From: Escherichia coli O127:H6 str. E2348/69
GTDB lineage: Bacteria > Pseudomonadota > Gammaproteobacteria > Enterobacterales > Enterobacteriaceae
Assembly: GCF_000026545.1 (NCBI RefSeq)
Contig: NC_011601.1
DNA length: 64,000 nucleotides
Reading direction: 5' to 3' (one strand)
The translations under genes were made by a program, and so were the position numbers. Of the stretch, positions 52,906 to 56,486 are shown in pieces. How positions within the stretch are numbered: the stretch's first letter is position 1; each line of letters opens with the position of its first letter. Below the pieces are notes generated by a model that made no database searches, had not been told where the DNA came from, and saw only the letters and a list, made by a program, of their open reading frames with translations.

Positions 52906-54888
52906 TTACCATTGATAACTCACGAAAATTTTTCCGTTACGACCATCCTGTGGGATGCCTTGCGGCGACCAGTACTCTTTATCGAAGGCGTTGCCCAATA
53001 CCAGAGTAGTGGTCATGCCTTTGAGCGCCTGCTGCCCTTGATAACTGACGTAGAAATCATTCACACCATAGCCAGGTTGTTTGCTGTAGCTGCTGCTGAT
53101 ATGTGTTGAGCGATCGGCAAACGTACCGACCCAACCAACAGAGAAGCCACTGTGAGCGATCGGAATATTCAGGGTACTGGTAACGGTATCCGGGTTAATG
53201 CTGGAGATATATTCCCCGGTATCGGTGTCTTTGCCGCGGGTACGGTTATAGGCCACATCAAGGCTAAACAGATCAGTGGTATATTTCGTCATCACATCCC
53301 AGCCCCAGATTTTGGCGTTCGGGACGTTATACGACATAGTTGTCGCCGCCGCGAAATCGACGGTCGTGGAGATATAATCTTTCGCTTTGGTATCAAAGTA
53401 GCTGGCTTTAAATTCCAGAGCATCATTGGACAACATCAGGTCATCAAAACGCAGCCCAAAACCGTACTCCTGAGTTTCGTTAGTTTCCGGACGTAAGTTC
53501 GGGTTTGGCACCCAATAGTTGGTATAGAAGCGACCAATCGAGAAGTGTTTAGAATCGTTATACATTTCGCCCATCGTCGGGGCGCGGAATGCCTGAGCAT
53601 ATGAGCCAAATAACATCAGCCAGTTGGTCGGGTTGATAGTCATCCCCGCACGAGATGACCATTTGTCGGCATCAACATCTTTGTAGCCGTCGCTGCTACC
53701 GCGATAACTGTCATAGCGGGTTCCGCCAAGCAGGGTAATCGGCAGATCGCGTAAGGTGATCTCATCTTGTAGCCAGCCAGAGCTAAAATCGATTTTTGCT
53801 TGCGGGAAGCCCGTCGTCGCGCCACCCGGATGTTGTTCCTGACGATAATACTCACCGCCATATGTCAGTAAGTGAGAAGCGAAACTGTCGGCAAATAGAG
53901 TGGAACGGTTCTCCAGCCTTGCTCCTTTTGTTATCTGTTCACGATACTCGCCTGAACTCCCCGTGTTTTGCGCATTAATACGGACTTCCGACCAGTAAAT
54001 TTTTGCATCTGCATTTAACCAGTCGTTACCCTGCGGGGCGAGTTTATAAGAAAGCTGCGCATCGCGTTGAATTGTTGAACGATCGACCATCGGGTTGCTG
54101 CTATCAGAAGCTTCAACGGTCTGCGGATTTTTTGGTTCACGCGCGTCGTTGTTGTAGTAACGCACTAAACCGCTCAGAGACTGGGCTGAATCAATTTGCC
54201 AGGTCCCTTTCGCCAGCATGTTATTAATGGACTCGTCATTCGGCGCGGTTTCACCATTGCTCTGGCGTAAATCACCCCGATCGCGACTGGACCAGGCCAC
54301 AATACCATCCAGATTTTCAGTTCGCCCAAACGCGCTCGCGCCTAATCCCAGGCTATGGTCCCCCGTGCCGCCAGTACCAAAGACACTAAAACCACTACTT
54401 TGTCCTTCCTGCAATAAATCTTTTGCATCGACCGTATCGTAGGAGATCACCCCACCCAGCGCGCCACTGCCATACAGTAATGCTGAAGGTCCGCGAACAA
54501 TCTCAACACGCTTGATCAGCGCCGGATCAAGAAAAGTACCATTCAGGTGTCCGGTATCCGTTCCCTGGCGAACACCATCGACAAGAACCAGCACGCCGCG
54601 ATGATCATAGCCACGCATATTTACATCCTGACCGTTGGTTCGTCCGGTACCATCAAGAGTAATTCCAGGAACATGACGCAGCAAATCAGTGGCTGAAGTA
54701 GCCGTTTGATTTTCAGGAGCGGAAGTGTCGATAACGCTGACCATCATAGGCGCTTCGAAGGAACTACGTGCATTCCCCGTTGCCGTAACGGTCATGGTTT
54801 CAGTAGCAAAAGCAAACGTTGGCAAGGTGGCAGAAACAGCCAAAGCCAACAAACTCAAACGCAACGAGGTAAATTGCGGACGTGACAT
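52906..54888 (-). CDS. chuA: TonB-dependent outer membrane haem/haemoglobin receptor ChuA
   Basis: 660 aa; signal peptide MSRPQFTSLRLSLLALAVSATLPTFAFA, TonB-box-like ETMTVTA, C-terminal ...KIFVSYQW terminal aromatic. Confidence 0.95.
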   Translation of the reverse strand: MSRPQFTSLRLSLLALAVSATLPTFAFATETMTVTATGNARSSFEAPMMVSVIDTSAPENQTATSATDLLRHVPGITLDGTGRTNGQDVNMRGYDHRGVLVLVDGVRQGTDTGHLNGTFLDPALIKRVEIVRGPSALLYGSGALGGVISYDTVDAKDLLQEGQSSGFSVFGTGGTGDHSLGLGASAFGRTENLDGIVAWSSRDRGDLRQSNGETAPNDESINNMLAKGTWQIDSAQSLSGLVRYYNNDAREPKNPQTVEASDSSNPMVDRSTIQRDAQLSYKLAPQGNDWLNADAKIYWSEVRINAQNTGSSGEYREQITKGARLENRSTLFADSFASHLLTYGGEYYRQEQHPGGATTGFPQAKIDFSSGWLQDEITLRDLPITLLGGTRYDSYRGSSDGYKDVDADKWSSRAGMTINPTNWLMLFGSYAQAFRAPTMGEMYNDSKHFSIGRFYTNYWVPNPNLRPETNETQEYGFGLRFDDLMLSNDALEFKASYFDTKAKDYISTTVDFAAATTMSYNVPNAKIWGWDVMTKYTTDLFSLDVAYNRTRGKDTDTGEYISSINPDTVTSTLNIPIAHSGFSVGWVGTFADRSTHISSSYSKQPGYGVNDFYVSYQGQQALKGMTTTLVLGNAFDKEYWSPQGIPQDGRNGKIFVSYQW

Positions 54889-55178
54889 AGCGATTCTCCA
54901 TGAGGAAAATAAAAAATGCTGGCTGCCTGGGTTAATACCGGGGTGGCTGGCGAAAAATAAATTTATTTACAATTCAAATGATTAGATATCACCACGGGAA
55001 GCTATTAGCGTATATATCCCGTAAAATTGCCGAATATTTCTGATAATTCAGCAAAAGCACGCCCTCTTTGTCAGGCAAAGTAGTACGCCACGTCTGAAGT
55101 GAAGAGTGCTGTGCGTTTTCCCTTACAAAAGATATGATTTTGTTATCCATGATGTCATATTTTGTTAAACTCAAACGT

Positions 55179-55197
55179 GATAATGAGAATTATTATC
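55179..55197. promoter_or_regulatory. Fur box upstream of chuA
   Basis: gataatgagaattattatc versus Fur consensus GATAATGATAATCATTATC; about 290 bp upstream of the chuA ATG, implying a long 5' leader. Confidence 0.7.
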
Positions 55198-55529
55198 GAT
55201 CAATTTTTTATGATCAAGCTTTTTTTAACCGCCATTAACGCAATAAACAGGGGGTTATGAAATCTATCCAGCATCCAGAAAACCATCCTGTGTTTATGGC
55301 TATCCCCCCACAACCTCATCACAAAACGTTGTCGTTAACAGTGATAATTTTCTCTTCTCTTTGCTCTGCAAGCCGCGATATCTCCGGGTTCTCAGCTTTT
55401 TCCCGCGCTGAAATTTAATCGGTAACAAGAACATTAGCTGACGAAGCATCTTGATAAAAATCAAAAATAAATACGCTTGTAACGCCGTGCGTATTGAATC
55501 GACGGTTGTATTTCATATATAACTCAAAT

Positions 55530-55548
55530 GATAATCATAATCATTCTC
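55530..55548. promoter_or_regulatory. Fur box upstream of chuT
   Basis: gataatcataatcattctc, near-consensus Fur box, about 105 bp upstream of the chuT ATG. Confidence 0.7.
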
Positions 55549-55652
55549 AATTTGATAAGAGTTCTCACATTATGCCAAGGATCATCACCAGGCCGTTTCT
55601 TTTTTCCCCACTAACGTTATGTATTTCAGCCGTGGCCTCTGCCGCGAAGACC

Positions 55653-56486
55653 ATGGTAAAACGAAAAAAATTGTTTACGGCATTACTGGCTTTTAGCTGG
55701 ACTTTTAGCGTAACGGCTGCCGAACGTATCGTGGTCGCAGGAGGATCGCTGACGGAGCTAATCTACGCGATGGGCGCTGGCAAACGCGTGGTTGGTGTCG
55801 ATGAAACGACATCTTATCCACCAGAAACCGCCAAACTGCCGCATATTGGTTACTGGAAACAACTCAGCAGCGAAGGCATTTTGTCACTTCGCCCGGATAG
55901 CGTAATTACCTGGCAGGATGCAGGACCGCAAATTGTGCTCGACCAACTGCGGGCGCAAAAAGTCAACGTCGTCACTCTGCCGCGTGTACCAGCCACCCTT
56001 GAGCAGATGTACGCCAACATTCGCCAACTGGCAAAAACGTTACAGGTTCCTGAACAAGGCGAGGCGCTGGTGACACAGATCAACCAACGCCTGGAGCGAG
56101 TACAGCAAAACGTGACGGCCAAAAAAGCCCCGGTTAAAGCCATGTTTATTCTCTCCGCAGGCGGAAGTGCGCCACAGGTTGCCGGTAAAGGCAGCGTCGC
56201 GGACGCCATTCTTTCGCTTGCCGGAGCAGAAAACGTCGCTACCCACCAGCAGTACAAAAGCTACAGCGCGGAATCGCTGATTGCGGCTAACCCTGAAGTG
56301 ATTGTCGTCACCTCACAAATGGTCGATGGCGATATTAATCGGCTACGTTCTATTGCCGGAATTACCCACACTGCCGCCTGGAAAAACCAGCGCATTATCA
56401 CCGTTGATCAAAACCTGATTCTGGGAATGGGTCCGCGTATTGCTGATGTCGTTGAGTCTTTACACCAGCAGCTTTGGCCGCAATAA
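55653..56486 (+). CDS. chuT: periplasmic haem-binding protein ChuT (ABC transporter substrate-binding)
   Basis: About 277 aa from MVKRKKLFTALLAFSWTFSVTAAERIVVAGGSL (signal peptide); ORF track shows a longer in-frame extension from 55494, which cannot be excluded. Confidence 0.85.
   Translation: MVKRKKLFTALLAFSWTFSVTAAERIVVAGGSLTELIYAMGAGKRVVGVDETTSYPPETAKLPHIGYWKQLSSEGILSLRPDSVITWQDAGPQIVLDQLRAQKVNVVTLPRVPATLEQMYANIRQLAKTLQVPEQGEALVTQINQRLERVQQNVTAKKAPVKAMFILSAGGSAPQVAGKGSVADAILSLAGAENVATHQQYKSYSAESLIAANPEVIVVTSQMVDGDINRLRSIAGITHTAAWKNQRIITVDQNLILGMGPRIADVVESLHQQLWPQ

Follow-up and report, generated by a model that had tools for sequence, protein, structure and literature searches.

Promoter and 5' leader of chuA in Escherichia coli O127:H6 E2348/69: a FourU thermometer at the Shine-Dalgarno below a divergent mid-leader

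The interval 54889-55200, between chuA on the minus strand and the divergent chuT (ATG at 55573), is almost certainly the chuA promoter with its 5' untranslated leader, in the phylogroup-B2 (E2348/69, UPEC-type) allele and with a FourU thermometer at the Shine-Dalgarno (SD). The Fur box, the long leader and the thermometer are already known from two papers that treat them in detail and from a family curated in Rfam, and only the fast divergence of the B2 mid-leader and an invariant island at +102..+130 go beyond those papers. Positions are those of the window, the whole stretch of 64,000 nucleotides that was analyzed, and the features are collected in Table 1.

Table 1. Features of the chuA locus in the window, with leader positions counted from the chuA +1 unless stated otherwise.
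Feature	Position	Strand	Description	Source
chuA CDS	52906..54888	(-)	660 aa; start codon 54886-54888	ORF list and 100% identity to the RefSeq-annotated E2348/69 chuA region
shuA/chuA 5' UTR thermoregulator, RF02597	54886..54917	(-)	-29..+3 relative to AUG	Rfam match
FourU hairpin	54893..54910	(-)	5' arm A-UUUU-CC 54910-54904; loop UCAU 54903-54900; 3' arm GGAGAA-U 54899-54893
Predicted CyaR pairing site, GGCAGCCAGCAUUUU	54913..54927	(-)	leader +254..+268; ends 14 nt before the SD
Invariant 3' leader block	54889..54963	(-)	+218..+292; holds the CyaR site, thermometer and SD
Segment homologous to EHEC +177..+217	54964..55004	(-)	most divergent leader part; 59% identity to EHEC-type alleles
Conserved island, UUUGCCUGACAAAGAGGGCGUGCUUUUGC	55051..55079	(-)	+102..+130, within the divergent mid-leader
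Putative chuA +1	55180	(-)	leader 55180-54889, 292 nt	alignment to the Sakai +1
Fur box of the chuA promoter, GATAATGAGAATTATTATC	55179-55197	.	17/19 against the 19-mer consensus; spans the -10 hexamer and +1
Sigma-70-like chuA promoter	55189..55217	(-)	-35 TTGATC 55217-55212; 17-nt spacer; -10 AATAAT 55194-55189	promoter scan
Fur box of the divergent chuT promoter	55530-55548	(+)	17/19 match; outside the chuA leader

The product of chuA is a TonB-dependent haem/haemoglobin outer-membrane receptor. The gene is neighbored by chuS on its 3' side, with chuW/X/Y 3' of chuT, and 751 bases across the intergenic region have 100% identity to E2348/69, where the RefSeq annotation gives the same genes. 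E2348/69 is an EPEC strain that we take to belong to phylogroup B2. The chuA-chuT intergenic region was found in 2,236 of 5,426 complete E. coli genomes and falls into two main allele classes: the first, at least 99% identical to the window, comprises 1,222 genomes, and the second, at 80-95%, about 1,000, among them EHEC O157. Elsewhere in the window, Rfam matches at gathering level were found for AgrB (RF02891, 48655-48739 (+), 91.5 bits) and naRNA4 (RF02564, 17378-17456 (-), 65.2 bits).

The end of the leader matches the Rfam family RF02597 (release 15, cmscan) with 60.1 bits against a gathering threshold of 58, over the full model (1-32) and with 32/32 identity to the consensus; the E-value was 1e-8 when the search was local and 7e-7 when it covered the whole window, far beyond chance. 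The match includes the SD and finishes on the AUG of the 660-aa chuA open reading frame, and the model stem has 7 bp. As mRNA, the last part of the leader together with the start codon (54910-54886) reads A-UUUUCC-UCAU-GGAGAA-U followed by CGCU-AUG, in which the SD GGAGAA (54899-54894) pairs with UUUUCC (54909-54904) in a 7-bp hairpin with one U.G pair. Four consecutive uridines, U-21..U-18, are paired with A-6, A-7, G-8 and A-9, as the FourU class demands; these pairs belong to the minimum free energy structure at 15-45 °C, and when the full leader is folded each has a probability of 0.84 or higher. The initial annotation had named a known FourU thermometer for shuA/chuA and had seen a TTTTCC tract that could pair with the GGAGA SD, suggesting a comparison with the published shuA element. 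The thermometer is indeed the one curated as RF02597 and tested by mutation in the literature (PMC3660397), and the tract makes the same pairing as in the published hairpin, predicted here for the isolated element as well as for the full leader.

The Rfam FourU family of the agsA type (RF01795) gave no match in 54700-55700 even at E <= 10, so that "FourU" stands here for a structural class and not for sequence homology. Like the Salmonella agsA element, that of chuA pairs four consecutive uridines with the SD in a short hairpin with weak pairs; however, it is a single short hairpin ending a 292-nt leader of an iron-uptake gene, whereas agsA is a heat-shock gene.

The temperature response of this element has been described by Kouse et al. 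2013 (PMC3660397), who showed that the thermoregulation of shuA is post-transcriptional, fused 293 nt of the UTI89 chuA leader to bgaB for assays at 25 and 37 °C, and included EPEC NC_011601.1, which is E2348/69, in their alignment figure. The UTI89 hairpin tested there is identical to that of the window. In those constructs expression fell at 37 °C with U-19>C and rose at 25 °C with U-19>A; U-19, the site of both the stabilizing and the destabilizing change, corresponds to window position 54907. Our in-silico mutants at 37 °C agree in direction with the published phenotypes, since U-19C strengthens the hairpin (-8.7 kcal/mol) while U-19A (-2.5 kcal/mol) and C-17A (-1.7 kcal/mol) collapse it. 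Compared with the shuA/chuA element of Kouse 2013 and RF02597, the 32-nt element, its position at -29..+3, the 7-bp hairpin and the gene are identical; there is no difference in the element, and the upstream mid-leader alone differs from the Shigella/EHEC allele.

Folding at 25 and 37 °C, which the initial annotation had proposed as a check, does not discriminate between the two temperatures. The isolated -29..+3 RNA forms the Rfam hairpin throughout the range of 15 to 45 °C. Its nearest-neighbor energy is -8.4 kcal/mol at 25 °C against -6.1 kcal/mol at 37 °C, a loss of about 2.3 kcal/mol that leaves the hairpin folded at both temperatures. The hairpin survives in the fold of the full 292-nt leader (pair probabilities 0.7-0.96), at equilibrium the SD remains paired even at 45 °C, and a linear extrapolation of the hairpin energies puts the melting point at about 70 °C. 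Because the unpaired probability of the SD is about 0 at 25 °C as well as at 37 °C, a switch cannot be demonstrated from the fold alone. The calculation yields only the loss of about 2.3 kcal/mol; that this loss would change ribosome access is backed by the published reporters, on which the temperature effect rests.

The high predicted stability of the hairpin at 37-45 °C would also suit a general translational damper, or a platform for small RNAs and Hfq, that does no real thermosensing and leaves the main control to Fur, Rho and the small RNAs. The published fold-effects are small, among them a modest 2.6-fold effect of the U273A mutant in EHEC, and Hfq, RyhB and Esr41 act on the same ribosome-binding site (PMC9002310). 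However, reporters with the identical hairpin respond to the shift from 25 to 37 °C with unchanged mRNA (PMC3660397), and single-base stabilizing and destabilizing mutations move expression as predicted (PMC3660397, PMC9002310), which makes a damper without thermosensing very unlikely and favors a thermometer.

A second U-rich tract (54911-54917 (-), U6 at -28..-23) adjoins the FourU arm on its 5' side. In-silico mutation of the FourU stem leads this tract to pair with AUGGAGAAU instead, over 9 bp in another register. In the folding model this register could serve as a backup occlusion of the SD.

According to the initial annotation, the chuA side has a single good Fur box, about 290 bp upstream of the start codon, which would imply a long untranslated leader. 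Counted from the A of the ATG (54888, minus strand), the near edge of the box is 291 nt away, and between this ATG and 55179 the best Fur-like match in the 19-mer consensus scan has 7 mismatches, so the first statement holds. Fur boxes with 3 mismatches or fewer occur at two sites in the 64 kb and at none in 100 shuffles.

The long leader agrees with the transcription start mapped in EHEC Sakai by dRNA-seq at 4,391,862, which gives a UTR of 291 nt (PMC9002310). In the Sakai record the chuA ATG lies at 4,391,571 and the +1 is the T in CATTA[T]CACG, the coordinate arithmetic having been checked. The block from -35 to +1 is identical to that of EHEC at 38/38 positions, and because of this identity the homologous +1 is placed at 55180, giving a putative leader of 292 nt transferred from EHEC by homology; the promoter found by scanning agrees in position with the mapped +1. 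With the start at 55180, the Fur box covers both the -10 and the +1. [quoted passage not shown]

One more promoter-like site, matching the consensus at 9/12, lies inside the leader (55158-55129 (-)) and would shorten it to about 230 nt; an ATG-proximal or internal second promoter of this kind might make most of the chuA mRNA and render the long leader largely irrelevant. However, promoter-like matches are at chance level (4 seen against 2.6 +/- 1.7 expected), and this site occurs in the B2 allele only, has no nearby Fur box and would still leave a long leader. The dRNA-seq of EHEC found a single +1, at -291 (PMC9002310), and the Shigella RT-PCR also points to the distal start (PMC3660397). A second promoter as the main source of chuA mRNA is thus highly improbable, and 55180 is retained as the putative start.

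The divergent neighbor gene shuT/chuT is also Fur-repressed and thermoregulated (PMC5458455). It differs from chuA in its short leader (42 nt), in a Fur box just 3' of the +1 and in a different hairpin. The shuT transcription start lies 42 nt upstream of the ATG and is closely followed by the Fur site (PMC5458455), and by homology the chuT +1 lies at about 55531, with the ATG at 55573. In the chuT leader (55531-55590 (+)), a weak fold of -5.4 kcal/mol at 25 °C and -2.0 kcal/mol at 37 °C spans the start codon by pairing CAUAAU to AUUAUG. This predicted fold is compatible with the published shuT thermometer (PMC5458455).

Upstream of the hairpin, the leader carries elements described in EHEC. 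The best local duplex with the small RNA CyaR, whose sequence was checked against Rfam RF00112, joins leader +254..+268 to CyaR nucleotides 21-34, in the single-stranded part of that RNA, with -15.5 kcal/mol; it was obtained from a local scan, as whole-sequence duplex folding gave meaningless long duplexes. The predicted site agrees in position with the published one, about 15 nt upstream of the SD, and lies inside the invariant 3' block; CyaR activates a chuA fusion of the UPEC allele (PMC9002310). For the EHEC leader, Rho termination at +271 and Term-seq 3' ends at +129, +271 and +297 have been reported, and the segment +177..+217 is needed for Rho-dependent repression (PMC9002310). The Rho point at +271 corresponds to about 54909 here, within the U tract of the hairpin. 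Over +181..+220, the counterpart of that required EHEC segment, the C/G ratio is 0.83 in the window against 1.60 in EDL933, and over +201..+260 it reaches 2.1-2.25 in the window allele. No RfaH ops element GGCGGTAGnnTG was found on the minus strand of 54850-55230 when up to 3 mismatches were allowed.

Conservation along the leader is strongly uneven. The block +218..+292 is identical at 75/75 positions among the B2 allele, the EHEC-type alleles and Escherichia sp. MOD1-EC7003, and an 87-nt query, made of this block and the first 12 nt of the coding sequence, is found exactly in 2184 of 2235 chuA-positive complete genomes. Compared with EDL933, the window has identities of 97.3% in the chuA coding sequence, 98.2% in the chuS coding sequence and 96.3% in chuT, with 38/38 in the promoter (-35..+1) and 75/75 at +218..+292, against 75.5% for leader +2..+217 and 59% for +177..+217 within it. 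No other stretch of the 7-kb locus diverges as much as leader +2..+217 (54964-55179), whose divergence of 24.5% exceeds the 10.0% at the four-fold sites of chuA by 2.4 times (Fisher p ~1e-5).

The outgroup for polarizing these differences was Escherichia sp. MOD1-EC7003, the sole other species from the scan of the genome collection. In 194 shared columns the B2 allele has 38 private differences and the outgroup 7, which places the excess on the B2 branch. The four-fold distances in chuA follow the expected tree, with 10.0% between B2 and EDL933, 12.4% between EDL933 and MOD1-EC7003 and 14.3% between B2 and MOD1-EC7003. The mid-leader excess reflects either a lineage-specific acceleration in B2 or the import of a foreign segment. 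UPEC and EHEC leaders have been described as about 83% identical, with UPEC fusions 55% brighter and without ChiX repression (PMC9002310); the branch polarity and the synonymous-site comparison of the mid-leader are not reported in that paper or in PMC3660397. In the B2 mid-leader, selection could have retuned Rho- or Hfq-dependent repression in a lineage rich in extraintestinal pathogens.

An exact 22-mer, GGTATTAACCCAGGCAGCCAGC, from the block just 5' of the hairpin was scanned through the species-representative genome collection and returned only MOD1-EC7003 and one chance match, with no hairpin variants for a covariation test. The chance match is in an unrelated Mucilaginibacter MAG, where the exact 22-mer GGTATTAACCCAGGCAGCCAGC occurs once (L005:488-509) inside a coding gene, presumably one for a TonB-dependent receptor. 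Within E. coli, the sole low-identity match, HS-02, keeps an intact hairpin, and its deletions are of the homopolymer type that assembly errors typically produce. The chuA leader of MOD1-EC7003 (L006:163-288, at about +165) carries a 125-nt insertion matching unannotated intergenic sites in about 2,900 E. coli genomes with 80-95% identity, which we take to resemble ERIC/IRU repeats; the thermometer, the CyaR site and the island are intact around it.

Within the divergent mid-leader, the 29-mer of the island is identical in all five sequences compared, by exact-string match and alignment, and its potential 5' partner at +67..+79 (55102-55114) is nearly invariant. In EHEC-type alleles, the island and this partner form the base of a stem-loop ending GUGC-UUUU-G. 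A scan for terminator-like patterns flags the island, and the Term-seq 3' end of EHEC at +129, left unexplained by the authors (PMC9002310), coincides with the end of the U4 tract of the island. The short U tract and an ordinary fold energy count against a functional terminator, and ARNold gave no intrinsic terminator in the EHEC leader, where truncations across the island region had little effect (PMC9002310). The island might act as a weak attenuator, or it might mark where a Fur-controlled leader RNA of about 129 nt ends.

Three predicted structures in this part of the leader were set aside. The stem-loop +63..+133 has an ordinary energy (z = -0.6), and its alifold registers differ between alleles. 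The pairing of the island with the 3' block holding the CyaR site has a probability of 0.88 in B2 and of 0-0.4 in other alleles and is not conserved. For a long-range helix of +87..+97 with the AUG region, one of three variable positions breaks the helix in EHEC-type alleles, and truncation of the EHEC leader at +116 had no extra effect (PMC9002310), which also counts against it. That the unexplained parts of the leader, namely the +102..+130 island and the B2 mid-leader, carry a function of their own is doubtful.

The mid-leader also holds a 61-codon open reading frame (54989-55174 (-), internal ATG at 55150), which might be taken for a small protein or a regulatory upstream frame, and in the alignment this frame is open for about 33 codons from the shared ATG in both allele classes; however, it has no SD before its ATG, which is ATT in Escherichia sp. 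MOD1-EC7003, a 1-nt indel between alleles shifts the frame, and by count from the alignment the allele differences are mostly non-synonymous, many at the second codon position, so that a coding leader has next to no likelihood. Between the divergent promoters, a 53-aa open reading frame (55257-55418(+)) with a GGGGG SD was rejected as a gene because of stops and a frameshift in other alleles and because it has no third-position bias. The spacer between the chuA and chuT promoters (55218-55505, about 290 bp) is 90-93% conserved, above the chuA mid-leader.

Set against the EHEC chuA map (Sy & Tree 2022, PMC9002310), the window has an identical promoter, +1 context, CyaR site, thermometer and island. 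It differs in a leader of 292 instead of 291 nt, in the divergence over +2..+217 and in a +177..+217 segment that is less C-rich.

Taken together, these elements would act in sequence on chuA. With iron, Fur would sit on the box over the -10 and +1 and block initiation, a binding predicted from the DNA for a regulation that is itself published. Without iron, transcription would start at about 55180, by homology to the EHEC start, and produce the 292-nt leader. Some transcripts may end prematurely in the leader through Rho, as shown for the EHEC allele, although the required segment is only 59% conserved here. CyaR would pair at 54927-54913 and activate independently of the hairpin, while RyhB and Esr41 would act at the ribosome-binding site, as published. 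In the full-length mRNA the UUUUCC:GGAGAA hairpin would limit ribosome access at about 25 °C and, weaker by about 2.3 kcal/mol at 37 °C, would let ChuA be made mainly at host temperature, an effect published for the identical hairpin.

The haem receptor ChuA is needed in the host by pathogenic E. coli and Shigella, and the chuA element ties the output of this receptor to low iron and to body temperature, both of them cues from the host, a link that is already established.
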